DNA from: Phoronis australis | Taxonomy: Eukaryota > Animalia > Phoronida | Length of the DNA: 64,000 bases | NCBI GenBank assembly: GCA_002633005.1 | Contig: NMRA01000002.1 | Span: 1,212,077-1,276,076, forward strand | Direction: 5' to 3' | Shown here: in pieces, positions 17,220 to 62,909 of the stretch | Layout of the letters: the number at the start of each line of letters is the position of its first letter | How positions within the stretch are numbered: the first letter of the stretch is position 1 | Notes under the pieces: model-generated | Database searches by the model: none | Told to the model about the DNA's origin: nothing | Seen by the model: the letters and a program-made list of their open reading frames with translations, nothing else | Translations under genes and position numbers: made by a program

Positions 17220-17402
17220 GATGATGATTGGAATCATTGGCGGAAATAGATGCGCCATCTGGTGTTGGATTAGTAAGCAGACGACGGACATGAGGAGGCA
17301 CACCACAGTTACTACAGGGTTTTTTGGCTGCCGACACACACCTATAAGTGGAGACGAGTCCTTAACTCACGTCCTGATCGAGAGTCTGAAAAAAACAAAA
17401 GG

Positions 17403-40600: not shown

Positions 40601-43600
40601 CCTACATGAAATAGAGGGTGCTTATTGCCGTCATCACTGCCTGACTATATTGGCGTCCATCCATGCAGCCACCTCTCCATTTATAATAAAATTGTCATGA
40701 ATCTTAACTTGTATTTTTTTACTTGAGATAGGACAGCACCCGTAAATGCTCGCAACAAACTAACTTGGCGAAAATTACCCATTTGCGAGCAACATGTCTG
40801 TCCGACTAAATCGCTAAAGTTATCGCCACTAAAAACTGCCGGTATTTTTGTCACTCATGTGAACTTAGTATTTTGGTAACATGATGACAAATAGAGACTG
40901 TCGTAACATTAGAAAAAGTGTCATCTGTTATTCTGAAGTGTTATTATACTGGATCATATCTACCCTTACTGGACTGTCTTGACTAGGTTGATGTCTTTTG
41001 TAGTCTCCTTCAGTGCTCTGCAAATTTAGCTCCCTGGTCAGCTAATAGAAACAGAAAACAACTTGTGACTAAAGCCTCACATATTTCAAATAGAGTGCAG
41101 ATTTGCCCTTTTGCAATTCTGTTATAAATTTCAGCACTGTTGTCATGTGCTATCCATGTATATAAGTTACCGTAATAAATAATGTCGAAATGCCAGATGA
41201 GATATACTATGGAGCAAGTGACATTTGAAATAAGGAGATGGATTTGTGGCACTTGTTGGTGCTTGGACTAACTTTTGATAATAGGTCAATGTCAAATATG
41301 TTTTCGTGTCCAGTCTCTGACATTACAAGATAATTTTTGGCCTATTCCCTAATTGATTTTTTTGTCCCTCTGTGTTCTGGTGAATACTATGCTATTGTTG
41401 TGAAATGCTGTATGAATGGTCCTTATGACTCCAGTTGGCTTTGTTGATTTTTGATTGATCATGCCTCTTCTTTGGTAGATAAAGGAAATCTTTAAACTGT
41501 TAATCAGGAATTAGTCATGATTAAAGGTATCCCATACCTGATTTTGTCGTATTGACAGATTCTAAAAACTACTTTCCCATCCATTTCTCTGAAAGAAAAT
41601 AATGATTTGTAACCTTCAACAACCCTCAAAAGTTTGGAGGAAAATTTGAAAACTCCTTTTAAAGTCTGATAAACAGCCAGGCGTGACCTGTTCGTTTTGA
41701 ACGAATTACATGGCAACTGTGGAAAAAGATCACCCACCAAGAACTAATCCGTGTCATAGAACTATGAGTTCTTAGTTCATTCCTGCCTTTAACTGAGAAG
41801 GTTGATGCCAATGGTGCATTGCAGGTGACAAAAAAGAGGATTGGTTGAAACCATCAAAACAGGGTTTAGTATCCCTTTAAACATTGAGGCTAAATTATTT
41901 GATAATTTTGCTACATATTTTACCTTATTGTTTCTGTCTAACATAATAGACTGATTATTAAAGTTATCATGCGCCGCGCATTGCTCTTATAATATAATGT
42001 GTGACTGGTTGCGCAACATGATTTACTGAACACAGAGTTAGTGCCAAGCTCAAGAGCCCAGTTGTTTTACCTCGGGTGCGCGTATTCCCAACTTATGGCT
42101 TCCTACTATTAACAGGTGTGAGGGTAGTCTTATCAGTACCTGTTAATGCTGCTAAGGAGTTCAAGGCTGTTCATGTTTGCTAATTCGTTTAGTCAACAGT
42201 TAAACAATTATGCTGTATGTTAGCATTGGTCTTTGTTTTCGGGGATTGTTTTTGTTTGACATACCCGTTGTCTGAGCACAGCTAGACCATTAATGGTAGT
42301 CTTGTTGGCATTAAGATATTATGGTATTGCACACAAGGACAGTAACTAAATGTGCCTGTGGACTTTTTAATGTGATTTTTTGTTACGAAAGTTGCATATA
42401 ATGTGTAACGGTTTGCTTAAAGGGACAAAATTTCAGTGTTTCTATTACATGCACTTCATGGATTCCCATGGTGACATTTTTGTATTAAATAGTAGAGTAT
42501 ATATTAATAATAATGATTGTGGATAAAAGGAAAACAGTACAGTTTGCAATATCTTGGCAAACGGGCAACATCCAGATATCTAGAGAACGACTGGAGGGTG
42601 GCTCTGTGTGGTTTGATTTATGACCGTAAAAATATGTCTGCTTAAGTAGGTTACCACTGGTTACTGAGTATAATGTTCCGGTCAAAAGATTCCCTATGAC
42701 ATGTTACCCACATTAAAACTGGATATCAATAATTTACAAGTGAGAGAAAATGACATAATTATATGGTGATTAGTGAATTAAAGATGTTGTTTTTAGCGAA
42801 ATTGTACGTGTTATTTTTCACAGCGTAATAAATGTCTGTATAATGCGGTTTGTTGAATGTGCGATTAATGCACGTCCTCATTCAAGTATTCAGTTTTCAC
42901 GTGAGGTGACGTCAGGTGCTGAGTGGCTCCGTAGATAAGGCGAGGGCTGTCATTACACGAAACTTGAATGAACACATGACTTGTTCAAATCCAGCCTCAG
43001 GTTCCCGCCAAAATGTTAATCAGCAGGCGTTGATTAACAAAATGGGTAAATCAGCGGTGTAATGGTCATGTCAGTTTGATTATGTGGCATAAGATAGCAT
43101 ATTGGATACCTGTTGGTATACGATTACTATTAGAGCAGCATGTGAATACTTACTTATTTACTTGAATGTATAACAGTTTATAATATATGTATAATTATGC
43201 TCCCTGAGTTACCATTCTCTTGTGTTATGTTTGGTTTCATCAAGGTAATTTAAGTTTTATTAAAACTTCTTTGATTGATTCCAGGATAGGAAAAGTCATT
43301 GATAAACTTGAGCCTGTGTTGATGTCAAAGAATACAAAAAATGTTCTTAAAAATCTTCCTGAGAACGTCAAGACAATCCAGGCCATTAACAAAGTATTGG
43401 AAAAGAAGGAGGTCCAAGATTTTATTGGTGAGCTGTTACTTAATATTATGCACTTAAAATTAATTGTTAACCTTTCAGAACTTGTCTTACTTGTGTGCTG
43501 TTCAAGGACTAAATACGTTTGAACAACTTTTTCTAAAACCAGCTGGAATTCTAACCAAGTGCTCAGTCAGCAACCTTTTTCAAGAGCAGTCTCCTGGTTT

Positions 43601-46600
43601 CAATCTTCACTCATTCTAGACCAATGTATTGTCCTGTAACAGGGCTGTACAAGGTACTTTGTATTACGGTAAAATCTCACCAATTAAGGACGCACTAAGT
43701 GGACAAGTGAAAGATATGTAACACCAAGTTAATGGCTTTCCATATTCAAGTTCTGTATCATAGACAAGCGCCACCCAGTCTATGGCTTTCCATATTTAAG
43801 TCCTGTAACATAAGCTAAAAGGGCCCAGTCTCTCAATAACTTTTTGCTCTTGCGACCTGGAGGTCAGCCATTTTGATGGTATTAAATTACTTGGGGAATA
43901 AAATTGAACTGAGTTGAGTCATCTCAGACATGCAATAGGAACAAAAGGTTTAAATTTATTTTTTTATTATTAAATTTATTATTTTTGTATAACATGAATC
44001 TCTCCTAATTCATTACTAACTTGACCAATTTTCAGCACTTCATTTGTTGTGTCAAATATTGTTTGAGACTTGACACTGACAGGTTTTCTTTTTAAGGAGT
44101 AAAAGCCATGGACAACGCTGGGAAGAATGAGTTTGTGATCTATTTTTATATCAAAATACGTCCCATGTCATACCTGTTCAGCTCGCTAAATGTCGCAAGT
44201 GTAAACAGTTATTGAAAAACTGGGATGCGTTTTGCGTACCATAGCTACAAACTGACAATGTTTTCAGAAATTGTGGGGATTCACAGCAATGTTAGAAGCC
44301 CTTTAAAAATTCGAACAGGCAATTTTGGCAATTATTTTTGTCTGACGGTGAGATTTTAGTGCAAAAACTGGCATAGAGCAACACTTAGTTTGAATGTTAA
44401 GTGTTTTTAATGATGATGTTAATAATTCTGGTTTTGTTTTTCCCTTTGTTTCATAAAAAAAAACAATATTCCAGAACACATCTATGGAATTTTAGATCTT
44501 TTCGACTCCAGCAAGCATTCACAAAATGGTTCTGTGTGTGAAAATGTTTTTTGAAGGAAGTTTTAAACCATTAATTATTTTTATTACTTACCAAACCTCC
44601 ATTTTTTCTCAATTGCTTTGCTGCAGATGCCAATATGACGCTGGGCCGTTTTTTCACCGACCCTAATGCAGTTGAAAAGTTCCTTGTGTCTGACCTCAGG
44701 GTCATGAAACGGGACGTGGTTAGATCTCTGATGGCGGCCACTGTTAATATGTCCAAGGTGAGAGGTTAGGTGGTTGTGTACACGGGGATGACGATGAGCT
44801 GAGAGGTGGGGTGGTTGCGTATGGAGATGAGGTGAGGGGTGATGAGGTTGTGTATGGGGACGAACGTGAGGTGAGGAATGACGTGGTTATGTATGGATAT
44901 GGATTGATAGATGTTTCATTTAGCCATTCATAGCGCAAACTGTCATGCATCTGTACAATTAAGTCATTCCTGCTTACTAAGTGCTGCTTCAAATGATATG
45001 ATGGGGATGAGGTGAGGGGTGGTGTGGTTGTGTACATGGATGAGGTGAGGGGTGGTGTGCCTGGTTGTGTTTAAGAATGAGGCGAGAGGTGATGTGTTCT
45101 GTATAGGACATTGCTGTGACACTTTTGTATGTCATAGGTCAGTCTTGTTTTTATGTTGGGTTTGACAGAAAAACAATTCAAGTTTTGAATTCAGGTGAGG
45201 TAACACTTTTAGTTTTACTTATGCGTACTATGTTCATGTAAGTCTCAAACTTGGTTACTATCACGTACTTGAGCCTGTAAAAGGGCGTGCTGTCTTGATC
45301 CAGTTTGCTTGATTCTAAATTGTGGTTCGTTTTCAGGTTATGGAGCTGATGGACACGCTGAGATTTAGAGAAATTGTTTGTAAGCCTGCACTGCTGGCCA
45401 GTTATTTGGTTTTCCCAGAGAAGACCAATGTTACTCTGATATCTCAGGAACTCTGCAACATTAATGACACCCTCATTCCATCTATAACCAAGACAATTCA
45501 AATGCAAATAAACATTGCTGAAATTATCAGATTGGTAGGTGTTGGTTAGTGCCCATTGTTTGTTGTTGTTAGAGGCTTGTGTTCATAGCTATTTGCCCAT
45601 TTATTAGAATAACCTGGCTAACAAACCTCCAGAAAACATTTTCTAAAATGGAATATTTTTCGAAAATTTTGTGCTTTCTATTCTTCAAGCGTTGAATTTA
45701 ATGATCGGTGGTATCTATGGAAATGAGTTGTCCGTGTTTGTATTTTTGACTTGAGTGTCTGTGACAGCTTGTAATATTTATTCTGCTTGGAAGATGATGA
45801 AGAACACGAACATAGTTGTGGTGGGATTCTGGGGACCGCTTGCAGTCATACTGCTGTTTGAGCACTCATAGTGCTATTATTATTAACTGTTGTTATTTGT
45901 ATTACTGTTATTGTTGTAACACTCTAGTGCTATTTTTACTACTAATGTTATTACTACAATAACTGATCCTCTCTTCAGGCGTCAGAGCTGAGTAATGTGT
46001 TTGGCAACTATACCTTGACTAGTCAGTTGAACGATGTAGCCACAATGGTGGACCTTCTGATGAAGTACACTCCCCTGAAGGTGGTGCTTCAACAGTTCCC
46101 GGAGCTGTCATTGCTTTCTCAGTGGTTGACAAATATTTTTGCCATCGTCACTGACTACAAACCATCGGAAAAACTGGACCTTACTTTGTAAGTGTTTCAT
46201 TGTTTGGTTTATGACCAATAGATAAAAAGACCTCTAGCATTCTTGTAATGGTGCTGCTGAACAGTTTTTGCTGGTTTTGGGCTTGGAAAACCAGGTCTTG
46301 GCAGTCTGGGCAGCTCCAATGGTCTGTTCCACAGAGCGTACAAAACCTGATGATATGCTTCAAAAACCTTGCTCAAAGCCTATTGAAACTAATTCTAAAG
46401 TCATTTTTTTCATCGTTAACGACTACCACAAGTGCAGCTGGCTAATTAAAAAACGAATAAACAATACACCAAATTAGTAGTTTTCACCCCAAAACCACCA
46501 TTTGCATGCAATTACTATGAACTGAGAGATTGTGCATTCACATTGTCAAGACTCTAGGTTACAGAAATCAGGTTAAAAATGGGTGTCCACCCGCCAGATT

Positions 46601-49600
46601 TTTCACAAATCAAAGTTTCTGAAGCGTACTTGAATTTCCTGTTAAATTTCAACTTCCTGCTTGGAAGCAGTAAAGGTTTAAGAAAAGCCACGACTGAGCA
46701 AAAAGTGGGTCAAGAGGTTAACTGGCAATCTTTCATACAAAAATCAAGCAATACCATTCGTAGCCTTCACATGCAGCACAAAGCATGCCCCAAATATTAA
46801 TGAAATTGGGGCATTAAATTCAACTGTGGCTCAAAAAAGTATTTAGTGCCACCTGATGACGCTTGATTAACAAAACATTTTGGATGCAATTATTGTTCAA
46901 TTTGAACATTTCAAGGTAAGTCTTTGCAAATGATTTACAAGCTCTTGTAATTTACCTTGGTGATAATAGGTAATGTTATTAATGAAAGTTTAAATTCATG
47001 TAAACAATGAATTTTTTTCAAACTGCACATAGTTATATTTGATGTCGACAACTGCGGACATCAGAATTAAATTAACTGGTGTGTAGTCCAGTTTGACTCG
47101 CACTCCTGTTGTTACTTTGACACGTAATACACATTTCTCTTTCTTGTACTATAGTTTATTATTTTTTAACAATGTAAAGCGCTTCTTTTTGTAAGGTGCT
47201 CTAAAGCACTGTTCATTTAATTGATATACATTATACGCGAGACATTATTACAGTTCAGGGTAACCTTTAAAGTACAAGAATGATTATTTTGAATTTGTCT
47301 TTTGAACCACTACTGAACATTGATTATCTGTTCATTTGCAGGCTGGGTAATGTGTTGGATGACCTCGACCCTCTCATTGTCAAGTGGACCAATAACAGCC
47401 AAGAATGGCAGGATATCAAAAAGACGTTCTACTATGCCAGTCAGCTGGTCACTTGGCTGACTCAGGGCATTGACTCACTGCCCCGCATGAGGCTCACATT
47501 TGGCATGCTGTTCCCAAACACTACCAGTATAAAGGAGTACATTACTAAGAGCAGTCAGGTGACCCCAGAGGTTGTAGAGGCCCTGCTGGGAGCAACTATA
47601 GACCGGGCAAAGGTAGGAATGGAATGTGAATGAGAATTGCATTGAAATAAATTGAGATTTGCTCATTTCTTAAGCTTTCATGCGATATATAAAAATTTTG
47701 TAGCTGATCTGTTTGGAGAGCACTGACTGTTTATTCATGTGATTGCAAAAAGTGACTCCCAATGGACTGGGAGTTTACTCGATGCACATGAGTTTGGTGG
47801 CTTTTCACTTCAGGTATACCTTTTATTTAATTTTTTGCCACTTGCCAATGATGATTGACAACCTCATTTCCCATTTGTTGACCTTGGAATTTTGGCGGGT
47901 GACATTTGGTCAGTTGATATTATGCTTAGCGTCAAACCCTGCTGTACCATGTATCTAACACGAACACATATTGTGTGTCTAACATGTAAACACATACTAT
48001 TGTCATGTATCTAGTGTGAAAACATATACTATATAATGTATCTAGTATGAAAACATATACTGTATCATGTATCTAGTGTGAAAACATATACTATATAATG
48101 TATCTAGTATGAAAACATATACTGTATCATGTATCTAATGTGAAAACATACTATATATTGTATCTAGTGTGGAAACATACTATATCATTTATCTAGTGTG
48201 GAAACATATACTATATAATGTATCTAGTATGAAAACATATACTGTATCATGTATCTAGTGTGAAAACATATACTATATAATGTATCTAGTATGAAAACAT
48301 ATACTGTATCATGTATCTAGTGTGAAAACATACTGTATATTGTATCTAGTGTGGAAACATACTATATCATTTATCTAGTGTGGAAACATACTATATAATG
48401 TATCTAACATGAAGACATATACTATATCTTGTGTCTAACATGTACACAATATTAGGTATATAACATGTAGACCTATACTACATTGTTTATGTAACGTTTA
48501 GAACAGCTTCTTATTTAATTTGCACTTTTCTTATCTAGTAAAGTTTTACTTTTCATGCAAAAAAATGGGAACACCTAATCAGTTTCTATGTAAAATATGA
48601 TTATAATTGGGAACACCTGTGTCAATAGGGTGATCAACCAAGGCTATGTTTGAAACTAGGTACACCAAAGACAACAGAAGCGAACATGCTAGTGCAGGTC
48701 TAGCTATATAAATATAGGTGAACCCATCATGGCGGGTTTACTTACAGGGATATGTAAATGGTGGGTCTAGATAAATTTATATTGGTGGCCCCATTGGGAT
48801 AGGTTACTCCATATTTGTATAAGTGGACCCATCATGATGGATGGGTTTACTTATATTTGTATAGTTGGCCACATTGGTCCATCATTTGGACCCACGGATG
48901 CGGGATTCACTTTTAGGGATGAGTCCAGCTATGTTTATTTAGATAACCCGCCATGGCGGGATTCATACAGGTATTCCCACGATGGGTCCATCTATATCAT
49001 CTCTAGGAAACGTGATACATGATTAAGTAATGTTTAAATCGGGTGAGATAAAACTGGATGCATGAAATTTTACAGTGTCGTGAAAACAATATGTTGGTAC
49101 TAGCACAATGAGACTATAGAGATACTCTTAACACAACAATTACTCTCAGTGCTACAACTATATTTGGCTATTGTGTTGTTTTGGCAGCTACTCTTGCATA
49201 AGCTAGTGAAATGAACTGTTTAAGCAGTTTAACTGGAAATTAGCAGTCATTTAGCATTCTCCATATTAAACTAGCTGGATTTTGAGACCTTGCCACCATG
49301 TTTATGCACAAACCTTGGTGAAAATTAAACCAGTTTGTTTGAGGCATGTAATTGCTTGTTATATGAAATAATTTAGGCCTAAAGGTGGGGCCCTTTATTA
49401 ATATAGTGGGCCTGGCGTGAAGGCAGCTGAAGAACGTAGCCTCCTATATATGACTGTCATTTTAAGTTAAAATTATTCTCTTTGAATTAGCCTTATGATA
49501 ATGAGGTAACTATGTAAGGTAGGTCATTTCAAGCTATTAATTAAGCACGACTTTTATTGCTTGGTAAAATCTGGAGTATAGTTCTTGGTGAAATAGAATT

Positions 49601-52600
49601 TCTCCAAATCTGTTGCTTCATCGTCAAATGCTTTTTGTTGATTTATTTTTTTGTTAACACACTTACATGCCGCATTTGTATCTAATCAAAGTGGAATTTA
49701 CAAATAACATGTGTCTCATTAATAGCTCAAAGACTAATGGATTTGGTTAAAATCAAAGGAAAGGTGGTGTTGTGGCGGACACTTTTAAATATTTTATTTT
49801 GCAACCCATAGCTACACTGTTCCTGGAGGGATTTTTTGCGGATGGATCATTTTACAGATTATCAGCTATGGATCATTTGTTTTCTCTAGAACTCACCTTT
49901 CTGGACTGCTATCTAATTTAGTATGTACCATGTGCAGTTCACATGTTCACAGCATATTGCTTCGTATGTACAACATTCTAGCGTATTATTCATGTAACTT
50001 CTAGTGCTGTATTGTGATGACTCCACCCTGTGAGGCGAGTTTCCAGATTTCAGTGATCGGAAACTCAGGTTAAGCCAGATCGTTATTAGTGTGACAGCGA
50101 TAGTAAGGCGAGAAAGTTGACAAACCAATGTTTACATTGTCTACGTTCTTCTAGTAAGCTCATGTAATCCGACATTTAAATAGCGTACTAGACACTAACT
50201 GATACTTAAAAATACTATTTGCAAATAACTTTTACCAAATTCCATGAAGAAGATAAGTTATTTATGAAATACAATCACCAAAAAACCTAACAAATAAAAG
50301 CAGTTGACTTTCAGAGAAATCAGACTTAGGGGTTGTTTTATATCTTTAATCAAATGTGCTGAAAAGTTAGGATCCGAGAGTGCATTCCCAGCATGGACTT
50401 ACCTCAGATGTTGATTTTGTGCAAAAGGTCAGTCGGTGTATTTTGATTGAAAAAACATTGAATCAGTAGCAGAACACCAATATAGCTTAGATACTGAAGT
50501 TTGAAGTATTCTGAATTGATATCTTAGCCACAACAATCAATTTAATACTAGAAATTCAGAGTCTACGTCCATCACGTACGTTAGTCGACTCACATTACAT
50601 TGAGTTGTGTGACAAAAATTTGTGAGAGATATATTCACCAAAAAATTAGTACGTGGTACTCTTCAAACATTCCACTAAATCATCATAAAAATTGCAACTT
50701 CATACAACTCGCAGAAAATTAACGTTAATTTTTTTTCAAAAATTCAAATTCTCTGTGTACGTAGACATGTATCTATAGAACATATAGACTTATTAATGCA
50801 ACAGCCCTAGTGGATACACGCAAATGGAACGTCATGCTCAACAAAACTTTTCTCAAGGAAAATTTTTTGCTGAGATTCTTTGATATACTTATGAACTCAA
50901 CATGAAGACACATACTATCTAAAGTGTAGGCACAGTACACTATATCAGTTATCTAATGTGTCCACTTACAAAATATGTCATATTTCTTAACTTTCAGCTT
51001 CAAGCCCTGATCGGTAAGGCACAGGCGACTAACTCTAGTTTGAAACAGCTGCTCTGTGATGGTGACCATTACAGCCAAGTGATCACACTGCTTCCAACTG
51101 CTAACGTTGTTCTCATGAAGCGTGTCCAGTCCAGTTTGTGTGCCTTCAACTTCTCTGTTCTTAGCCAAGAGATTAATGATGCTTTCAAGATTGACACCAT
51201 TGTTAAACAGGTATGTGACTAACGTATAATGGTTATAATTAGAGAGATCATGCTTAGACCAACTGTAATTGTTCATTAAGAGCTAATCGATGAACGTAGT
51301 GGACTGTAATGAATGGTGAGGCCCAAATGTTGAGTTGCAGGCCCAGTGAGTTGAGTTTGGTCCTTGTTGTCGTATTAAGGTGATCATCACAGTTAGGAAG
51401 TAGAGCAACATGTAACAGCAGTCTTTTGGTGAATGTTTTGATTTAGTTTCTTTAACTTTCTCATCTCAACCAACACAGTATGTTCAGAGTTTTGAATAAC
51501 ATCTAATATTGAGTCAGCACAGTGGTATGTTCAGTTTGATGTGACAACTAATATTGAACCAACATCGTGATATATGTTCAAATTTTTGTGTGACAACTAA
51601 TATTGAACCACAGTGATATGTTCAAAGTTTTGTGTAATAACTAATATTGAACGAATATAGTGACATGTTATGTTTTATTTGACAACTAATAGTGAACAAA
51701 CACAGTGATATGTTCAGTTTTGTCTGACAACTAATACTGAACCAACACAGTGTTATGTTTTTTGTGACAACTAATATTTAACCAACACAGTGATATGTCC
51801 AGTTTTGTGTGGCAAGTAATATTGAACCAACACAGTGAGATGTCCAAGTTTATGTGAAACAACACAGTGATCAGTTTTGGGTGACAACTAATATTGAACA
51901 AACACAATCATAATGATATATGTTCACTTTTATGTGACAATATTGAATCAACACGGTGACATGTTCAAAGTTTTATGTGACAACCACTGGTAATATTGAA
52001 CCAACACAGTGATATGTTCAGTTTTGTGTGGCAACTAATATTGAACCAACAAAGTGGTACATGCAGAACTACTATAAAATAATGTTGAAGATTGTGTCTG
52101 ATGAGATTGGGTAAACACACTGAGGTACTTTACTTCTGTTACACCTGTGGCCAGGTATGCAAACTGGCTGTACAGGGAAGGGAGTTTTGCTACTAACAAT
52201 GCGTGGTTGACAGTGCGTGAAGTGGGTTATGTGCTACTTTTAATGTGTGGTTAAAAGTTGATGAATGGTGGAGACCTTTAACTTGTGTGAAAGTGAATGT
52301 ATTCTGCATGCGTTGAATGTTGAACTTCTGACAATGCATGTTTGCTATGGCGACATAAATAATTTTAGCCTGCTCGAGACACTCCAATGAATAGAATGCA
52401 AAGGATATTAGCTACTACAAAGCTTTATGTTTTATGTCCCAGTGTTATATTAAATGTTTATCCATTTAGTAGAACAAGTTTGAATATGAAACACGCTGCT
52501 TAGCACATGTTTTGAAATATTAAAGGCCAAACATATCTTGCGTGAAAACACTTGATGAGCTCCATTGAATATACATCACCTTGTTGTCCCTTATTCTCAA

Positions 52601-55600
52601 CTGCTTTCAGATTCAGTATATTCTTGTTATGTTTACTGGTAAATTAATATGCATAATTGTTTGTTAAATGTATGATTGTATAGTTGACAAATTTTCCAGT
52701 TGATTAGTATTCAGTTAGGAGTAGTTGCGTTCACATGACTCGTATAGAGCTGTTTGTGCTGCCGTGGGTTTTCATAGTGCAGAAAAGACTGGATTTGGAG
52801 CAGATTGGCTTGTAAATTCATAGAAAATTATCAGTTAAAAATACAGTGTTGGGAAGTAAAACTCAAGTTATTGTTTCAAATGAAAAGAATGAAAGGGTCT
52901 CTTGTTTCTTAATTTTAAACCTTTTCCCTACAGCTCGCTGAATTTGACAGAAGCCAGATAGGGCAGCAGTCATTGAACTGGACAACTGTGATCAACACAG
53001 GTCAAAAGTTAATGGCGTCTGTGAGCCGGCTGCTACAGTCCTACATTGGTGATATTGGACGAGTATTGAAGGACCTTGACCTTAGGGCTGTCTGGCACAG
53101 CCTGGGTGGCCTTGTGTTGCCTGGCAACAGCACTGCTGAGGAGAGCTTGAAGTAAGTGCACTGTGGTTGAACTACTAAGTGCACTTTATGGAATTACTGA
53201 CCTCCAGTGCACAGGGCTTATTACTAGATTCACTGCTGTATTGGACCGTTGTATTTAAGCCCATGCGCCTATATGTGAACCTGTACCTATATCCAGATTT
53301 AGGCGTTTGCGCCTATGAACAAAATTCTTAACTAAAACAAAGGAGCTGCTTTTTAATTTAGCTGTTAGTGGAGCTCGACTTATTTGTTGCTAAATGGTAG
53401 GTGTTAATATATTTTCAATGCACCATCAACAATTTGAATGAAAGTTCTGTAAAACTTGTCAAATTCGGACTCGTACAAGGTGGATTAGTGCTCAAGTTGG
53501 ACAAAGTAAAGCTCTACGCATAAATTAGAGTTCTTAAGTTAGATTTTCACACAACTGGGGTAAAATGTGCGCACTAGTTAACATTAAGTCTCTCATTTTT
53601 CCCTTACCGAACATCAGTCCATTGATAGGTTTTATCTGGGCTTGTTTTGGGGCAGGTTATTTTCCTGTTGGTCAGATGTGTCATGCACAAGTCAGATAGG
53701 TGTTATAAATTTTTCTTGTTGCAAATAGTGTTACTGAATTATTTCACTTTTAGTTTAATACTGCATGGTGTCCTCAATGTTGAAGTAACAACTTGATAAT
53801 TACTTTTTGTGCTGAGGTTAGCACTATTTGCTTACTTTCAGAGTTCTTCAGCAGACACTTATAAACAGTCTGCAGTCCCTGCAGTCCGTGCTAGAGCAGC
53901 AATCTGATTGGCCAGTGACAAGACGGGTATTCATAGTTGTCGACCTCTCGTTGGATGTACTTGAGGCTTCAACCAATTATGCATCAGGTTGGTGACATTG
54001 GCAGATTTTCAAATAATGTTCTAAATGATATTTGTTAGATGACGAAGATGGTTTCACCCTTAGGGTCTTGTCTATTGTGTTAATATTCTTTGGACATTAT
54101 TATAACCAAGTGAGTGTTTGATCCAGTCCTGGACAAAAGGTTACATTATGATTGATATATCAACTCTATATTTTCAGAAGGTAAATTTGCGTACTGCACT
54201 TTGTGTCTTGTATAACAGATATCAGCTAAGAATTGCCTGGTTCTACGCCTCGCCATTGTGTTCAGTTGTATTCAATTGGGAATCGAGTATCATTGGCGAT
54301 TCTATTCTTAAACCAATCCTTGTACAACTCAATATGCTGTGCAGGTTAAGATTCATTTAGATATCGAGTTGAGATCATAAAACTGCTGTACAATTATAAA
54401 AAGATGCCTATTCAAAATATGAGTTTGGGAGGTTAGTTTCTATTTTGACCTAGCTGCAGAATGATCCTTCCTGACCCCTGTCTAGTGACTTATCTCGCTT
54501 CCCCTTCAGATCTTCATCGTTACTTCTCCATATTCCTACACAACAGTACCATCCTACAGGACATGCTGGGCGCCCTGTCTGATATGGGGCCGCGCACTGC
54601 TGCTTCCATCATCAGTGCTCTCACTGAGCCCTCTAATGTACAGGTGAGAACTAGTCAACGTATCTCAGCTAATATCTCGCAAAGATAAGGTTGATACCTT
54701 TTACTTACTCTAGAGTGCATCATACCCTTAGTATTGGATATCACTCACTGACTACTCTTGTGTGTGCCATACCAACCCTGAATTTTGTTTTACTTGACGT
54801 GTATCATTCAAAGGTCTTCAGTATTCTACGTTGTGATCCAACGTAACATGGAATTCATTTCCTATATCTTAAGTATTGAAATTTTCGATGTTTATCTCGA
54901 TTGTTTTTGTAGAAAATACTGCAAGATCCTTCGCACTTGTCAAGAATCTTCTGCGACCAAGCTCTAGTTGGTGTCTTTTTCAAACTGCCCCCTGGTGTCA
55001 ACACGAAAGATGTCAAACATCACATGTGTAACCTTGACCTTACAGCATTGACCAATGAAATTCAGAAGTTGTCTAACATGACGCAACTCATCACAGCGGT
55101 ACATCTTGATCCAATTTTCTTGTATTGATTAGCTCTGCCGGTGGTCAGTATTGACTGGTTCTGGCAATGGTCACTACTGACTAGCTCTGGCAATGGTCCT
55201 TATTGACTAACTCTGGCGATGATAAGTATTGACTATAGGTCTAACAATGATTAGTATTGACTAGCTCTGGTGATGATTAGTATTGACTAGCTCTGGTGAT
55301 GATAAGTATTGACTATAGGTCTAACAATGATTAGTATTGACTGGCTCTGGTAATGATTAGTATTGACTAGCTCTGGCAATTAGTATTGACTAGCTCTGGT
55401 GATGATTAGTATTGACTAGCTCTGGTAATGATTAGTATTGACTAGCTCTGGCAATTAGTATTGACTAGCTCTGGCAATTAGTATTGACTAGCTCTGGTGA
55501 TGATTAGTATTGACTAGCTCTGGCAATTAGTATTGACTAGCTCTGGTGATGATTAGTATTGACTAGCTCTGGTGATGATTAGTATTGACTAGCTCTGGCC

Positions 55601-58015
55601 ATGATTAGCATTGACTAGGTGTGGCCATGATTAGCATTGACTAGGTCTGGCCATGATTAATATTGACTAGCTCTGGCGATGTTCAGTGTTGACTAGTTCT
55701 GGTGATGTTCAGTGTCGACTAGTTTTGGCGATAGTTAGTACTGATTAGCTGTGGTGATGGTTAGTATTGAGTGATAGTCAAAATGTTAGCTTTTAAAATG
55801 TTTTGAAAATGTTAGAGTGTGATAACTTGCAGACTCAAAAGGAAGTGCATACCTGCAGCTCTATAGAGGTAGTGTTTGTCGTTCTGCTTATTTCAGCTAT
55901 ATTGTGCAATATGGCAATGTAAGTGGGTATTTAATTAAACGATTATAATGCCATTTCGATCGAGTACCCTGAAGGTTTAAAGTTATTGGCGAATAAGCAG
56001 GCTAGAAGTCCGATTAAATTGATTTTGTTAAATTTTACACCTCAACATGAATCATGATCTTTCCTCTGTGTAGATAAAATCCTCAAACCTGTGAGTCCTC
56101 GCATTGCTAACAATAGTCACATCAAAGTTAATCGGAGGTCCGTAGAAAAATCTCATTTGCGCTTGTTATTAGAGAAATGCAAGTACATGACTTTGTCAAT
56201 TTGGGGATTTTTGTACCTGCATGAAAGATCAAGATTGATTTTGCTGTACATGCCAAGAATTGTGCGATGACACTTTCTTACCTCAAAATCCAACTGCTGC
56301 CTCAGGTGGCTTGGTAATTGCAACATTAAACAAATGTTCTAGGTTGTAAAAGGCACGATTTCCTTGTCCAATTTTCAATAATCAAAAACCTAATCGTGTG
56401 GTTTTCACAAACTATTCAAAAATGCTATTTATAAACTTTCAAAACAAAAAGTTAAGAATACTATTGTCACTCCTAATGTGTTTATGATGGTCTCATCAAG
56501 AGACCATGAACATCAGCAGCCGGAGGCGATTGGTTTAACCATAACAACATGGTGTCTTTGATTTGAGCGAGCAAATTCTGTGGTGCGCAAACCGGTCAAG
56601 TTGACCAATCTCAACCGGTTTGAGTGTCAACGTAGGATTCTTTTCATGATGACATTACAAAATGGTTAAATTTGAATCTAGGAGCCTTATTTGCCAAACT
56701 TGAGTTCAACAACATTAACTGAGAATGCACTATTTGATCAAGTTAGGTGTTAAGTTCCAGTTTATTTCTATTTTAGGTTGAAAACCTAATGCGTGTATCA
56801 GAGGCAGGCTTCTTAGACAAATCTGAGTTGGTGTCGAGAGCAGATTTGAAGACAATCGCTCAACGCACCAGTGATGTCATCTCCAAGCTTGTCCATGTTG
56901 TGACGTCCTATGTAGATAGTTCAAAGTCTGTGGTGTGGCCAGAAGTGAACATCAAATGGAATGCAACTATCTGGCAACAAGTGTGGGAGGATATTACAAA
57001 ACAACAGACAAACGCTTTGTAAGCTTGGTCAGATCTCACGGTCCCTGCATGCTTGGTCAAATCTCACTGTCCCGATAAGCTTCGTCAGATATCACTGTCC
57101 TGCTGATTTAATTACTTTGAAAGACAAAACCATACTTCACTTGTATGGTGGCATTGTACTTCGTTCAGGTTTTATGACTAATCTTTTCCCCAAATTTAAT
57201 GAGAATTTAAATAATTATATGTTACTTCATGTAAGGTGCATGTTAAGATTACAGTGAAAGTCATGCTATCATATTGACTTCTGAGGATGTCTGCCATTGC
57301 TTGCAACTGAATTCTCAGTTAGCCTCTGTCTGCTTGCTTTAAGCAGCTATTTATTCTTACTGAACACATTTCTCAGTGGTACACATTACTCTCATGGTTG
57401 TTTTAACTGTGTGAACCACTTTTTTACACTCTCTAGCATTGGTACATATTTATAACAAGACAATACTTTAAGCAGAGTTTTCTAAATGTTCTTCAAGCAA
57501 AATTTTCTAAAGGTTTTTTTGCCTGTCTAGGACTTAACAAACAAGCTACGTGGTGTATTTATACACTTTTTGTTGCACCAGTCTGTCTACTGTTGCAGAA
57601 TGTCTAACTTGATCACAGGAGTAGGCCCTGTCCTAGAGAACAGCACCTTGTGGACGACTGTTGGACCTTATGTGAAGAGTCTAAATGCAGTGTTGGAGCA
57701 CATTAACAGACAGGTGTTGAGTCAAGGTGATTATCTTTCTAACCAATCTTTACAAGATACATCAGTTAAAGATTAGGATAACCAGGCGCATCACTTGTGT
57801 TAGCACCCGGAGACGCCCAGCTTTTGACTAGGTCAAAGGTCGTAGTCCAGCTCATGATGACCAGTCGTTGTTTGTTTAAGCATGCCATGAAGTTTTGAGG
57901 TGCGGGTGTGTTAAGAAGTATAAATAGAGCGGCTTATCAATCATTTTGTTATGGATATGAACAGACCAAAGTGTAAACTGTTGATATGTTACTCTCTGTT
58001 GAGCTGTGCTGTGGA

Positions 58016-58064
<49 letters not shown>

Positions 58065-61000
58065 TTAGGGCTATGTGAAACTTCCTTGATAATTGTCTAC
58101 TTGACATTAAAAATGCTTCTGTGAACAATTTAGGCCATTGTCATCCTTTTGGGAATTTTATTTTCAAAAAAAGCAATGTCCAAACAATGCATAAAATTAT
58201 AGCTTCATTTTCCATTTCTATCCATAAAATTTCTTTAAACCTATTATTTATGCATCGAAGGCGAATTGATTGTGATGACCTCTTTTGATTTTGGTCATGT
58301 AGGAAATCTTTATTAGTTATTCTCAGGCCTTTTGATTTTTGATGCTTTTAACAGTGTTAAACATCTATTTCATTTTAGTGGATGAGTCAGTTAACAATGA
58401 AAATTGGCACACTTGTTGAATGGTGACCGTGTGGTCGAGGGAATTCGGTGTCTCAATCTTTTGATTTCCTTTCGCACAACAGAGATATCTGCTGTCAAAT
58501 GAATACTTGGGAGGCTGTTTTAAAAAGAGAGTTTGATGGCTGATATCCCTGTTGTTTGGTGGCTGATATCTCTGTTGTTTGAGGCTGATATCCCTGTTGT
58601 TTGAGGCTGATATCCCTGTCCCTGTTTTTTGAGGCTGATATCCCTGTTGTTTGAGGCTAAACCAATAATCTTGTCCCTGAGTAATGACTGCGCAAACAAG
58701 TCTCTTGCTGTTTGTGTTTTAAAGAAATTCTTGTTCAAGGCAAAAAAATACATTTTTCACCAAAATAGTGGTCACATGATTACAAACAAATCTGTGCTGT
58801 TTTAAAGCATTAGATTTTTGAGTCATCAAGAATTCATGAATTTTTTTGTTGAAAGAACTTGACAAAGTGTGGCAGTTACCTTAACTTCACGTTGTAGTAT
58901 TGACAGTTTATGGTGTTTTATCACGGTCACATATTCAACATTTGATAACGCATGATTTACTACTTGGGGTTATCATAGCCATTACAATGGTTGTCAGCAC
59001 CTGGCCTTTGTTTTTCATTGTTTTTTCTTGAAACTAAAACCATTATGACGTATGACGTTTCCACAACCTGGTGATGGTTGGTGACAGGTGTTTATGATTG
59101 TTATTCCTGTATCTTCACTCTGCTGTTACACTGTTAGAGCATCTCAATGAAGTGGCTTGAGTATCGTAAAATGATTACTTAATTAAAATTAAAAGAATTA
59201 TTGGGTTTACTTAATTTGAAAATTGACGATATTCAAAATTTGTGAAAAGATTCTCTTGAAATTTTATCTGAACATACATCATCTAATTGTCAGACTTTCG
59301 TTTAAAAGAAAAACACTGTTGTGTTTTGCCAGCTAGTGTTTGACCTGTTAATGGGAAAAGTTTGCGGCCGTCATCAATAAATGTTTAGTTGACAAAAAAT
59401 CTATCTTTATGAGAATTGCATCAAAAACTCAGAAGAGTGGAAAATGTATGAAAGATTGTTTTCTGGGTTTGGCCTATGGTGACCTACTTTAGTCACTGGT
59501 ATAACTTTTTTCCTGAAGAATTGTGTTCGTTTTTAAATGAAATGTTAGTGCATGCTCAGTTGAGGACAGTGTATTGTGAATGCACGCTGCTTGCGTTAAC
59601 AAATGTGCAACATGAACTTTTTTTTACTTGTTGCTTATCCAGCCCCGTCCCCAATTCTGGACCAGTTAATAAAGTACCTGAAGGACTATGGCATTGATTT
59701 TATCAAGGCACTCACTCAACTTGTTCAAAGTCCTGCCAAGGTAGGTTTCATATTTCGCAATACTACACTATTTGCTTAAGGGGTGATGTTTACCCAGTCA
59801 ATAGTCTTGTCTCAGACATGCTCTTGTGCCTTTGCTTATGCATGTAGTAGATTTATGTAAGTCTTTCAGCAATGATTACATCGTGTCATTAGTTACAAGG
59901 TGTTAACTACCATGTCCAAGGGGAAGCCTTAAAATTTAAACCTGCTCTTATTTGGGCAATAGTGTGATATAACGTGCCCATATTTTGAGAACCGTTTTGA
60001 TGTACGTTATTCAGTGGAGAAAACTGGTTCTCAAAATTCGGGCTAGTTATATCAGACCACTACCCTTATTTGTGACCCTCCTTCTGATGTTTTCTGCACT
60101 GTGAAATATTTATTTTTGGTCAAGCATTATTAAAACAAATACTTACGAACAGATTCTCATATCTGGATTATGAAAAATAATTTTTCCCATCATTTGAACT
60201 TATTTCACAATTCCAACAACATAATAAACTCGGCATTAATTGAAATACAGCAGAAAAATTGTGGCACAACATTGACACTATTTTGAAGTCAAATTGTGCA
60301 CTTATGCTGACATAAGAAAATCAGTGAAGCAGGAAAAATAATTAAAAGTCAAAACATAAAGCTGACATACAACAAAATTAATCCTATTTTGAAAAGGATT
60401 TCAATCATAAATTTAGTTAAAACTGGCGTTTCACTAACCCATTTAAATTTCACATTTTCGCAAGAGATGCTTTTGTTTAGGCGTCAGTAATAAAAAAAAT
60501 AACCTGACGACCCCAAGATTTTTTTTGCAAATTTGTGTTAGGCAAAGACCAAAATACAAAACATGATTCCAAATTTTTAAAAATTGATCCACAAATTAAA
60601 ACTGTCTCAATCCCTCTTAATTGTGAAAATATGGTCTAAAATCTTAAAGGACAACATTTATTGTGCTGTTTTTTTTAAATTTCATCTGCATGAAAACCAT
60701 TGGAGTTTTACCTCTACTAAAATAAGCAATTTGTACCTTTAATGATATGGCTAAGGTTTGCAGAAGAAAACAGCAACAATTCAAGAGAAATATAATTTTT
60801 ATACCTTCTTTCAAAGCAGGTTTTTGAAAAAGCAAGTCTAGCAGTAGCGGATCCAGGATATCACAAAGGGGGGCCACATTTTGTCTGTAAACATTTGCTC
60901 AAAGCACGATTGTAGATGCGCATAGCACCGAATGGGGGGAGGTCGGGCAAACCCCCTCCCGCCCAGGAAATTTTTCTGTTTTTTCCTCTAAAAATCGAGC

Positions 61001-62909
61001 TTTTTCCTTGATTACCGAAGTATTATTGAAGAAAAAAAGGCAAAAAAGAAGAAGGTGTCAACCAGGAAAAACTGCAAGTACCACATACTAGAACTCATGA
61101 CCTAGCGGATAGAGCGCACGTGCCTTACCACTGCACCAGATACTAAGAGACTTACTTGTTTATGGTCCATAGCATTTGCTCGTGAAACTCCGTCTCTTTG
61201 TAATGCTTATTACATGTTTTATATTTTGTGCAATCAGTTCCTAACAAATTTGTTGTATTTAAGATAGTCTTCAATTGCCCAAAAGACCAAATCCGTTTTT
61301 TGTGTTGGCAATAATGACGCGATTGCTTTGGAAATCATCTTGACAGAGAGAATTATGAGTTTCTGAGTGATTCACTAAGGCTTCAATTAAAATTGACATC
61401 TTACCAGCAGCTTCTGTTTTTTCACCATCACTCAGATTCCATTTTCTTTAAAAGATGAAGTAATTTTCTTAATTGCACAGTGTAGCAGACGACGGAAACG
61501 GAGTCGTAGTGCCCAGCGCCACTGCCGGTCGCCTGAGATATCACGGGAGAGCCTAGTATACTTAGCCATAGTTCCGTTACGATTGCGCCGTGTTCCGAAT
61601 TTGACACTTGAAATTGGATCTGAGCCCCCCCAAACATTAAAACTGCACACATTAAATTAAATCTTGTTTCATCCATATAATTTTAATTACTGGGGTTAAT
61701 TAATAAACTCAACATTTCCCTACGCTCTTGCTGTTTTATTTTTTTTGCGGCAGCAAAGGGGGTGCCGGGCCCCCCCTAAATCCACCTATGTCTAGTTAGG
61801 ATCAGCAACAATTATTAGATGAGTCTACCTATGCGCCATATGTGGACTAGAGCGTCTGCCCGGTTAGCAGAAAGTTCTGGGTTTGAACCCCAGTTGGGGC
61901 AGTGATCAAATCAGACATGATGGGACCAACATATAGTGTGAATGAAGGCTAATGATTCTTGCTAATATGGTATCAATGCGATGATTTTTAACAACTCAAT
62001 TTTAAGTATTAAGTACTTGAATGCTTAAATTTTAAGTGAAAATCTTTGTTTCACCATGCAGTGCCACCTATTGATTTTAAGTTCTACATTTTAGTTAGTT
62101 GTTGGTGAAAGTAATTGTTGTCTTTTGCCTTTAGACCAAAGAACTGTTCGCCCTCACACGAGACTTCAAACTTCTCTGTGATCCGGTCAACTTCCAGCGC
62201 TTGTTCCAGCTGCCACCATCTGTCCCTGTCAGCGATGTTCTTCAGTTTGCTTGTAATCTGAATGCATCTGTCATTGTTAACGAAATTCTTACTGTTTATG
62301 ACACATCTATAGTGACTGCTGAGGTAAGTGTCATGATACTGATGGCTTAGTCCGTGATTGGTCCCTTTATTAGTGTTGGTACATGTATTGGTATTGCTCC
62401 ATGTATTACCAGTGGTCAATGTATGACCATTGGTACATATACTACCATTGGTCTATTGGTTTATATATTACTATAATTGCTCCATGTTTAAGTCTTGACA
62501 GCGAATCAACAATTTCGTTAATTTAAACGGAGGGTATTCAAACATATAGGGACATCCCACTAGTGTGTGCATGACAGACATATGTTAGTGACCTTTAGAG
62601 CCAGCAGAAGCCAATTTATACATTGTGAAACATTGAATATGAGCATACGATATTTCCCCTCAATGATTCTTTTCTATTTCAGATCATGAGATACTTCAAT
62701 CACTCGTTACCTGATGGAACTGCTCGTGACTTTGACTGGGACAGACTGGTGCATACTCTGAATCAACTTCAGTTCAAAGCACCCCTCATGCTGACCAAAA
62801 ACCCATTTAGTCTGTTTGCCACACTTATGAGTGACTACACTAAGATCAGTTCAGCAGTCGATGGATTGTTTACAGCCATGCAAAACATGAGTTGGAATGG
62901 TTTTGAGAG
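31687..62909 (+). CDS. ABC transporter subfamily A (ABCA1/2/12/13-like lipid exporter), 5' partial, with a tandemly expanded first extracellular domain; continues beyond the window
   Basis: 18 exons: 31687-31752, 35419-35512, 37482-37611, 43285-43427, 44627-44757, 45337-45534, 45979-46187, 47342-47612, 50998-51210, 52934-53151, 53842-53987, 54510-54643, 54913-55098, 56777-57018, 57599-57726, 59643-59740, 62135-62323, 62683-62909. All are GT-AG, in frame and stop-free (3023 nt, ~1007 aa). The N-terminus MGWFSQLGLLLKKNVIQRLRHP|VLLIFEVIWPIAIFLAVAIVR...EC|VYNARAMPSAGLVPFIQTFVCNINNQC is diagnostic of ABCA. Confidence 0.93.
34719..34893. mobile_element. 175-bp non-autonomous DNA element (CAGGGGCGGAT...ATCCGCCACTG) with a 5-bp TSD
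   Basis: Terminal inverted repeats; ccgct duplicated at 34714-34718 and 34894-34898. Confidence 0.75.
37980..38530. mobile_element. MITE-like element with imperfect inverted ends
   Basis: ctgaatttcgccctgttt...gaaaatcgaattggg (37980-38085) is inverted relative to gatccaattcgattttc...aaacagggcgaaatgcag (38479-38527). Confidence 0.5.
38184..39516. repeat. ~430-bp direct duplication (38184-38639 / 39104-39516) flanking an insertion and an assembly N
   Basis: The copies are near-identical with small indels; copy 2 begins immediately after the N at 39103. Confidence 0.9.
38660..38915. mobile_element. Terminal segment of a DNA transposon, PIF/Harbinger-like (inferred), with dense subterminal palindromic aaaccaggttt/agacc motifs
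   Basis: Begins gccgatttcataaaggtggtttaaagttaaaccaggtttaaactggacttagaccaggttt and contains many repeated inverted motifs. Confidence 0.5.
42915..43005 (+). mobile_element. tRNA-derived SINE-like head
   Basis: A-box-like gtggctccgtagataaggcg followed by B-box GTTCAAATCC (42983-42992); no cloverleaf. Confidence 0.5.
44758..45105 (+). repeat. Degenerate ~32-bp G-rich repeat starting at the ABCA exon-5 donor; most units contain GAG|GTGAG
   Basis: gtgagaggttaggtggttgtgtac..., gatgaggtgaggggtgatgaggttgtgtatgggg..., gatgaggtgaggggtggtgtggttgtgtac... Confidence 0.75.
47945..48480. repeat. 29-31-bp satellite with higher-order structure
   Basis: Unit ~tgtatcatgtatctagtgtgaaaacatatac; a six-unit block at 48030-48211 is repeated at 48212-48391. 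Confidence 0.95.
51465..52060. repeat. ~43-bp degenerate minisatellite (aaccaacacagtgatatgttcagttttgtgtgacaactaatattg), ~13-14 copies
   Basis: Directly visible in ABCA intron 9. Confidence 0.92.
55125..55770. repeat. 24/21-bp minisatellite (gattagtattgactagctctggtgat), >25 copies
   Basis: Begins ~27 nt after the ABCA exon-13 donor; homogeneous core with decayed edges. Confidence 0.96.
57019..57103 (+). repeat. 3x ~28-bp repeat beginning at the ABCA exon-14 donor
   Basis: gtaagcttggtcagatctcacggtccctgc / atgcttggtcaaatctcactgtcccg / ataagcttcgtcagatatcactgtcctg. Confidence 0.85.
58018..58063. repeat. (GT)n microsatellite
   Basis: About 23 GT units. Confidence 0.98.
58533..58658. repeat. 22-bp minisatellite (gaggctgatatccctgttgttt), ~5 copies
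   Basis: Directly visible. Confidence 0.92.
59954..60065. mobile_element. 112-bp hairpin MITE-like element, GGG...CCC ends, flanked by ttattt
   Basis: gggcaatagtgtgatataac...ttttgagaaccgtttt is inverted relative to aaaactggttctcaaaa...gttatatcagaccactaccc; ttattt lies on both sides. Confidence 0.6.
60842..61790. mobile_element. 949-bp non-autonomous DNA element (CAGTAGCGGATCCAG...CTAAATCCACCTATG) with a 5-bp TSD; contains a tRNA-SINE-like head at ~61080-61140 (-)
   Basis: Imperfect TIRs of the same family as 34719-34893; tctag duplicated at 60837-60841 and 61791-61795. Internal - strand ggtgcagtggtaaggcac...ggtcatgagttctagt. Confidence 0.7.
61841..61902 (+). mobile_element. tRNA-derived SINE-like head, same family as 12893-12965
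   Basis: Sequence similarity between the two copies; B-box-like ggtttgaaccc. Confidence 0.6.

Follow-up and report, generated by a model that had tools for sequence, protein, structure and literature searches.

A gene of the phoronid Phoronis australis raises the question of what an ABCA transporter could do with a first extracellular domain (ECD1) assembled from one repeated unit, and of where such a unit could have come from. The gene begins in a stretch of 64,000 nucleotides (nt) of contig NMRA01000002.1 (assembly GCA_002633005.1, positions 1,212,077 to 1,276,076 of the forward strand), which is here called the window. A preliminary description, made from the letters alone, had proposed a giant ABCA transporter in which a module with two cysteines is repeated in tandem within ECD1, the array forming a long lipid tunnel. 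On the agreement of base motifs, homolog searches and trees, the window gene is the N-terminal part of an expressed gene for a giant ABCA transporter, and its position can be refined to the clade of ABCA12, ABCA13 and the insect protein Ldd (lipid droplet defective, which we take to be fly CG34120).

The exons were rebuilt from splice signals by coordinates, which gave 18 exons on the + strand (31687..62909), with GT-AG ends in 17 of 17 introns and 1007 codons free of stops. Coding exon 1 (31687..31752, 66 nt) carries the ATG and the elbow helix and has the length of human ABCA4 c.1-66, while exon 2 (35419..35512, 94 nt) encodes the first transmembrane helix (TM1) and has its like in ABCA4 c.67-160, also of 94 nt. 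Exon 3 (37482..37611, 130 nt) encodes the base of ECD1, with C54 (in a split codon), AMPSAG, C75 and C81, and matches chains of ABCA4, ABCA1 and ABCA7 (E 0.0012-0.003). The N-terminal marks of the ABCA subfamily, namely elbow helix and TM1 followed by an ECD1 base with the PSAG motif and these three cysteines, are therefore all present. The sole transmembrane-like stretch of the window protein lies at about residues 19-47, and the more than 960 amino acids (aa) beyond it, with no second transmembrane helix, represent an enlarged ECD1 of well over 600 aa. The 19 N-glycosylation sequons, the 1007 residues and the single transmembrane stretch reproduce the counts first given. The gene leaves the window before TM2, so that the module count, TM2 and the nucleotide-binding domains (NBDs) of the full gene lie beyond it.

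Expression could be followed in three runs of raw RNA reads (X1-X3) from one study carrying the same species label, 18-19% of each run being used. The reads fall strand-specifically on the predicted exons, and among the joints listed there are GT..AG joints at the predicted sites for at least 12 of the 17 introns (1-2, 2-3, 3-4, 5-6, 6-7, 7-8, 9-10, 10-11, 13-14, 14-15, 15-16 and 16-17); joints 4-5, 8-9, 11-12, 12-13 and 17-18 had no reads among those listed in X1-X3, where depth was low. Since joint 3-4 was read in both X1 and X2, the array is tied to TM1, as the claim that exons 4-18 are spliced to exons 1-3 demanded. An artefact or a pseudogene is ruled out by the open frame, the RNA joints and the colinear homologs. 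Two X2 reads pass from exon 16 (59740) through the last few bases of exon 17 into exon 18 (59740 to 62681), so that the cysteine exon is lost and the frame changes; they probably represent splicing noise.

Exons 4-18 form four consecutive modules on the + strand, the lengths of which came out on rebuilding exactly as first described. Module 1 (43285..46187, 227 codons, 681 nt) consists of exons 43285-43427, 44627-44757, 45337-45534 (C203/C228) and 45979-46187; module 2 (47342..53151, 234 codons, 702 nt) of exons 47342-47612, 50998-51210 (C434/C462) and 52934-53151; module 3 (53842..57018, 236 codons, 708 nt) of exons 53842-53987, 54510-54643, 54913-55098 (C665/C690) and 56777-57018; and module 4 (57599..62909, 214 codons, 642 nt), after which the gene runs past the window, of exons 57599-57726, 59643-59740, 62135-62323 (C884/C909) and 62683-62909. 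Every cysteine pair lies within one phase 0-0 exon, with spacings of x24, x27, x24 and x24 in modules 1-4, again as in the preliminary description. The modules are also mutually similar, as had been suspected: all six pairs beat their shuffles (local z 5.3-12.5, about 18-32% identity), at most one of the 500 shuffles per pair reaching the observed score. Module 2 is recognised by a full-module hidden Markov model (HMM) at 98 bits, the window modules being included in its seed. Every module as a whole is of phase 2-2, its exons having the phases 2-1, 1-0, 0-0 (the cysteine exon) and 0-2, of which the first two are fused in module 2. Because each unit is such a symmetric exon group, the array is likely to have grown by recombination within introns.

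As to the origin of the unit, profile matches, cysteine register, intron phases and the domain limits of ABCA4 coincide, and for this reason it can be identified as the distal ECD1 of ABCA1 and ABCA4, approximately residues 100-310, comprising leading helices, lid and trailing helices. A core HMM of the unit finds one match in each of three fish ABCA1-like proteins (38.6, 27.1 and 23.2 bits) and one in an amphioxus ABCA (26.0 bits), the highest score on 585,455 reversed residues being 3.8 bits. In hhalign comparisons the probability was 96 at residues 146-249 of ABCA1-like proteins, 95 for the last unit of ABCA13 and 52 for that of ABCA12, and about six units appeared in insect Ldd at 78-98, with weaker ones at the expected spacing; the first ABCA12/13 units scored about 2, within the reversed null (up to 3.5). 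ABCA12 nevertheless has a cysteine pair at 186/212. A 54-row profile of the cysteine exon, compared with the PDB, had human ABCA4 199-255 as its top match, with C205/C230 falling on both cysteines, a match which at E 0.1 is weak alone, and a four-row profile of the same exon found no ABCA protein in the PDB.

The gene structure points in the same direction. In the variant nomenclature, ABCA4 exons end at c.66, 160, 302, 442, 570, 768 and 858 (PMC7544654), and the window coding exons end at 66, 160, 290, 433, 564, 762 and 971. Introns 1-6 agree in phase with those of ABCA4 (six of the seven compared), and exon 6 measures 198 nt in both. The distal region of ABCA4 ECD1 has been delimited as residues 101-300, with disulfides C54-C81, C75-C324, C370-C519 and C641-C1490 (PMC8501128), of which C75-C324 is resolved, and the cavity holds lipid-like density (PMC8501128, PMC7932691). 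The lid, at about 138-271, is not resolved in the maps from cryo-electron microscopy (bioRxiv 10.64898/2026.06.25.734683, PMC8219669) and has been described as hollow (PMC7932691). On these grounds of HMM, hhalign, cysteine register and six intron phases, the proposal that the modules are homologous to ABCA1 ECD1 and arose by serial duplication of one of its units was upheld. Pfam gave no family at cut-off on the 18 window exons, and none of its families covers the modules in array-only proteins; PF26955 is unlikely to be the unit, as it also occurs on ABCA3-like rows without modules and is not found on Ldd rows. Word-indexed searches, limited to 2000 aa, gave no matches, and the ESM Atlas no usable one, only clusters below 0.8.

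The array is widespread and old, and not peculiar to the Phoronis genome, as the recommended survey of module number in other invertebrate ABCA proteins made clear. A profile of the four window cysteine exons, searched against 1.84 billion representative proteins, gave 73 matches, the best being a Ptychodera protein of 6292 aa (27 matched stretches, E 2.6e-110), with others in scallop, crinoids, Saccoglossus, Owenia, sea cucumber, Paralvinella, limpet and mantis shrimp. A second search, with the ECD1 end, first transmembrane domain and NBD1 of a complete sea-cucumber member as query, yielded 138 proteins of 2929-9321 aa (120 of the 138 among the matches listed). The core HMM detects 14-23 units in 24 N- and C-terminally complete giants of lophotrochozoans and echinoderms and 27 in the Ptychodera model, which is without an NBD; when the cysteine pair is required, the count is 13-22 per giant, in ECD1s of 3645-5685 aa. 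Arrays of 14-27 copies are therefore borne by molluscs, annelids, nemerteans, echinoderms and hemichordates. In total, 606 units were collected over 43 invertebrate rows, with a median period of 222 aa, gaps below 300 in 489 of 563 cases and a cysteine gap of x24 in 217 of the 606.

The best BLASTP matches of the window protein are such giants. It aligns colinearly with a protein of the nemertean Lineus (27.7% over 967 aa, E 4e-114) and likewise with that of Owenia, the units 1-4 of which are, in a chunked comparison, the best matches of window units 1-4 in order (4/4). Unit 1 has module 1 as its best match in six of six homologs, and in the five other than Owenia it is the only unit that always fits, the numbering being shifted in some homologs by undetected units. 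Colinear homologs, P0130, P0124 and P0081 among them, possess two transmembrane domains (TMDs), two NBDs and regulatory domains in one chain. Given this colinearity, the array, on sequence comparison, predates these lineages, and yet it is still expanding, since one block of Ptychodera units is 35-95% identical, as against about 20% elsewhere. A recent, species-specific expansion is ruled out for the window gene by the inter-module identity of about 20-30% and by the order kept with Owenia.

The clade was defined with a tree of the TM2-NBD1 region (46 selected rows, near-duplicates omitted, Lineus row 44% filled; IQ-TREE, LG+C20). Twenty-five invertebrate giants, including those of spider and mantis shrimp and insect Ldd, fall together with ABCA12 and ABCA13 in one clade (100/99), apart from which stand the ABCA1-like rows (97/89) and the ABCA3-like rows. 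In a second tree, built from the first 265 aa of 36 rows (a long-branch Trichinella outgroup row being on the wrong side), the window protein groups with Owenia (95/94) and falls, relative to the fish ABCA1-like branch, on the side of the giants and ABCA12/13.

Several further features of the giants were observed. A C-type lectin domain lies between array units in Saccoglossus (P0078 660-757, E 1.9e-10), and PF00059, the same domain, was found on the giant ABCA proteins of three starfish (P0110, P0111, P0113). Molluscan giants (P0114, P0116, P0118, P0125, P0138, P0144, P0156 and others) possess one canonical Walker A, at NBD2, that of NBD1 being variant, and may be asymmetric ATPases. P0086 (Bulinus, 5259 aa) is seemingly a fused model, in which the N-terminus of a second giant ABCA follows the C-terminal part of a first, the window N-terminus matching at 2712; this suggests tandem gene copies.

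The position of the array relative to the conserved cysteines determines which architectures can be considered. The three N-terminal cysteines are present in each of the 24 complete giants. Beyond their last detected unit, further cysteines follow at about +125, +170, +305 and +435, in agreement with ABCA4 C324, C370, C519 and C641 (in one row an undetected last unit displaces these positions, and another row has no last cysteine inside the bound used). The first cysteine after the array stands at +122 to +143 from the first cysteine of the last module in 23 of the 24; in ABCA4, C324 is at +119 from C205. By these neighbours the array is placed between C81 and the C324 equivalent. If a disulfide of the C75-C324 type forms as in ABCA4, the array is likely to start and end at the base; such a bond would pin both of its ends, which makes a straight tube of head-to-tail modules, directed outward from the membrane, topologically unlikely. 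The geometries left would be a string of units, a ring or an out-and-back strand.

Structure prediction was in part informative. The C-terminal half of a predicted Haliotis ECD1 (predicted local distance difference test, pLDDT, 60.8; predicted template modelling score, pTM, 0.36) superposes on ABCA4 and ABCA1 (Z 13.3, root-mean-square deviation 6.3, 239 residues aligned), the ranges aligned to ABCA chains beginning at residue 422 or later, that is, within the C-terminal half only, and the PDB lids being poorly resolved. Four internal Patella units, modelled with AlphaFold from a 25-row alignment, show the same helix pattern in each unit, with a mean pLDDT of 76 and a pTM of 0.35. As regards the prediction of two to four modules that had been suggested, folded units were indeed obtained, although the packing between them was not fixed, and the continuous long tunnel of the preliminary description found no support; the position of the array ends beside the base cysteines makes it unlikely as a simple end-to-end tube. 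Foldseek and VIA-wide gave no clear fold for the four-module model (E 0.02 or worse, Z at most 5.7), which does not make the fold a new one, and nearly all the VIA bundle matches, among the 50 listed, lie within single units (about 1-187, 213-399, 434-617 and 640-844). Mean-field covariation over the 606 units recovered the cysteine pair (z 6.4) and showed the long trailing helix to be coupled with the second leading one (columns 48-190, z 11.9; 55-197, z 4.8).

A further element stands after the array. Of 39 invertebrate rows, 36 carry the motif R-x-[KR]-R, which we take as the furin consensus, within the C-terminal half of ECD1. Its distance from TM2 is about -95 in the molluscs and nemerteans, while the echinoderms, the hemichordate and two further rows have it at about -280 to -320; by composition, 0.03-0.6 would be expected per whole ECD1. 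The -95 site was also found in five of nine Ldd rows and three of 12 ABCA12 rows (turtle, toad and eel), and the ECD1 scan found none in 10 of 10 ABCA13 rows and four of four ABCA1-like rows. Between modules there is no such motif in the window protein, and the units in general are nearly free of it. A polyprotein cut into single units is ruled out, there being no dibasic sites between modules.

These observations are best accommodated, with a probability of roughly 0.45, by an ATP-driven lipid exporter with a single predicted basal tunnel and a closed loop of self-contained, glycosylated lid units, each putatively holding lipid. The remainder of the Phoronis gene would encode a full ABCA protein, like its colinear homologs, and a C75-C324-type disulfide would make the array begin and finish at the base. 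The TMDs would feed one canonical tunnel, formed by the terminal module and the conserved C-terminal half of ECD1. Each unit would consist of two leading helices, a lid with a putatively disulfide-bonded cysteine pair, and trailing helices, and the extra lid units would be putative lipid-binding pockets, which may add capacity or deliver lipid to an assembly of lipids in the lumen or outside the cell. Cleavage of the furin type behind the array would give two mature chains, still associated via TM1. In related proteins, ABCA12 serves glucosylceramide trafficking and ABCA13 that of cholesterol and gangliosides (PMC7948424), neurons of the fly depend on CG34120/Ldd to pass lipid to glia (bioRxiv 10.1101/2021.03.03.433580, PMC11900885), and lipid density has been seen near the lid of ABCA2 (bioRxiv 10.64898/2026.08.25.746927).

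Nevertheless, several points weigh against this arrangement. Intron 7 is of phase 2, as against 0 in ABCA4, so that the last exon of the unit has no one-to-one match there. Furin-type cleavage is represented by a motif alone, which lies beyond the window, and for the Phoronis gene we infer it. The alignments behind the structure predictions had 23-25 rows, and the unsettled packing may reflect such shallow data instead of true independence of the units; in the weaker model, helical-bundle matches at 164-268 cross a module border. The couplings 48-190 and 55-197 would fit a parallel packing of leading and trailing helices, ill-suited to an up-and-down hairpin. Finally, the conserved module order hints at position-specific contacts rather than interchangeable beads.

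A somewhat unlikely alternative is that the array serves mainly as a long glycosylated spacer or interaction scaffold which tethers or targets the transporter, lipid passing only through the single basal tunnel. The sequon density, about 1.5-2.8 per 100 aa over these very long ECD1s, would suit such a role, though that of one fish ABCA1-like ECD1 is similar (1.86), and so would the C-type lectin insertions of Saccoglossus and the starfish. The N-terminal region of ABCA13 is moreover needed for vesicle localisation, for which its authors suggest protein interactions (PMC7948424), and in vertebrate ABCA12/13 the arrays have diverged past recognition save for the last unit. On the other hand, the retention of lid fold, cysteine pair and hydrophobic pattern in the 606 modules, at so constant a period, exceeds the needs of a spacer, and solved ABCA structures show the ancestral unit to be hollow and associated with lipid.

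The original idea of a conduit survives in a modified form, in which the modules are rigidly packed as a ring or an out-and-back double strand and their cavities join into one ATP-fed channel reaching far from the membrane. It can draw on the great regularity of the period (225 aa through a long series of adjacent Ptychodera units), the order shared with Owenia, the cross-border matches of the weaker model and the possible parallel helix coupling, which would allow units to stack; lipid exit via tunnel and lid has also been proposed for ABCA1 and ABCA2. Both array ends are probably pinned at the base, however, the low pTM contrasts with well-folded units, and the matches of the better model stay within modules. 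In addition, copy number is free to vary (odd or even), foreign domains are inserted between units, and each unit appears, from the ranges of the model alignment, to be without those C-terminal-half helices that help to form the ABCA1/4 tunnel. Such a conduit is accordingly judged unlikely. The same doubt attaches to a broader proposal, according to which bilaterian transporters of the ABCA12/13 type possess, as an ancestral trait, a furin-processed ring or out-and-back filament of 14-27 lid units in the lumen or outside the cell, with joined cavities acting as an ATP-fed conduit or a reservoir of high capacity, the long N-terminal regions of vertebrate ABCA12 and ABCA13 being its eroded descendants; if true, the ring or filament would be an extracellular counterpart of bridge-like lipid transfer proteins.

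It is very improbable that the transporter loads its array as a built-in lipid acceptor and that a convertase, with another cut close to TM1, then sets the array free as a lipoprotein-like carrier, because the N-terminal piece retains TM1, no second conserved site was seen near TM1 and none lies between modules, unlike in polyproteins cut into units, even though the furin-type motif exceeds its composition expectation at two alternative loops and a cut at either would, from the ABCA4 pairings, leave no disulfide between the array chain and the rest.

The window contains other features. Exons of an ankyrin-repeat gene, presumably gankyrin/PSMD10-like from its look, lie on the - strand at 14905-17366 (Pfam Ank, E 2e-09 for 14905-15069). 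An intronless-looking protein-kinase frame (22586-23107, + strand; Pkinase, E 1.4e-12) adjoins a THAP-domain frame (20831-21232, - strand; E 5e-08), and the two are possibly a mobile element. Minisatellite arrays, intronic and intergenic, occur at about 47960-48460, 51500-52050, 55130-55760 and 11950-12440, and multicopy elements drawing many reads at about 38150-39550 (a duplicated stretch), 43680-44350 (with inverted ends in reads) and 60000-61780.

Returning to the array of lid units, it offers a concrete structural hypothesis for the very large ECD1 of ABCA13 and ABCA12. About 600 natural homologs of the ABCA4/ABCA1 lid are now available, precisely for the part that cryo-electron microscopy leaves unresolved and to which many Stargardt variants of uncertain significance map (bioRxiv 10.64898/2026.06.25.734683). 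With single modules or short arrays, the relation between lid and lipid can be put to a direct test; a maturation step so far unreported is predicted by the conserved furin-type site, and fly Ldd is a member accessible to genetic work. A literature search, largely without subscription journals, found no description of the array or of the furin site, and an earlier mention is possible; large ABCA12/13 ECD1s were already known, whereas the regular array of lid units, its bilaterian spread and the furin-type site are apparently new.

Among known systems, vertebrate ABCA12 and ABCA13 stand closest, since they share the clade, have ECD1 enlarged at the same place and retain a detectable last unit. 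Their internal ECD1 is unrecognisable as modules, however, while the invertebrate array is regular, with one cysteine pair per unit. The N-terminal region of ABCA13 is required for function and is described as without homology or conserved domains (PMC7948424); part of it is encoded, according to a reference title in that paper, by one 4.8-kb exon, as against three or four small exons per Phoronis unit. The ABCA12 of birds, turtle, gecko and toad resembles the array in having tandem duplications inside ECD1, with periods of about 630, 570, 510 and 1330 aa; indeed, vertebrate ABCA12 ECD1 still grows by large duplications (Bombina P0147, 7546 aa, about 1330 + 980; P0131, P0129 and P0137, 630, 570 and 510). 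Insect Ldd belongs to the same clade, with its six or so detected units and a furin-type site near -95 in several rows, but its units are fewer and more diverged, and the cited passages on it treat it as an ABCA1/ABCA7 counterpart and leave repeats unmentioned. The ECD1 of ABCA1, ABCA4 and ABCA7 (base, tunnel and lid) shares the N-terminal base, the cysteine set, the phases of introns 1-6, the unit and the C-terminal half; unlike the giants, these proteins have one copy of the unit in an ECD1 of about 600 aa and a separate tree branch, and the ABCA1-like proteins (three fish rows) have no furin-type site in ECD1. Functional analogies are offered by nematode polyprotein allergens, in which separate helical lipid pockets are arranged in tandem, and by bridge-like lipid transfer proteins such as VPS13/ATG2, which form a continuous groove, although Foldseek and VIA-wide on the four-module model found no sequence or fold link to either. 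Unlike these systems, the giant ABCA array is free of cleavage sites between its units, all-alpha and joined to an ABC transporter.

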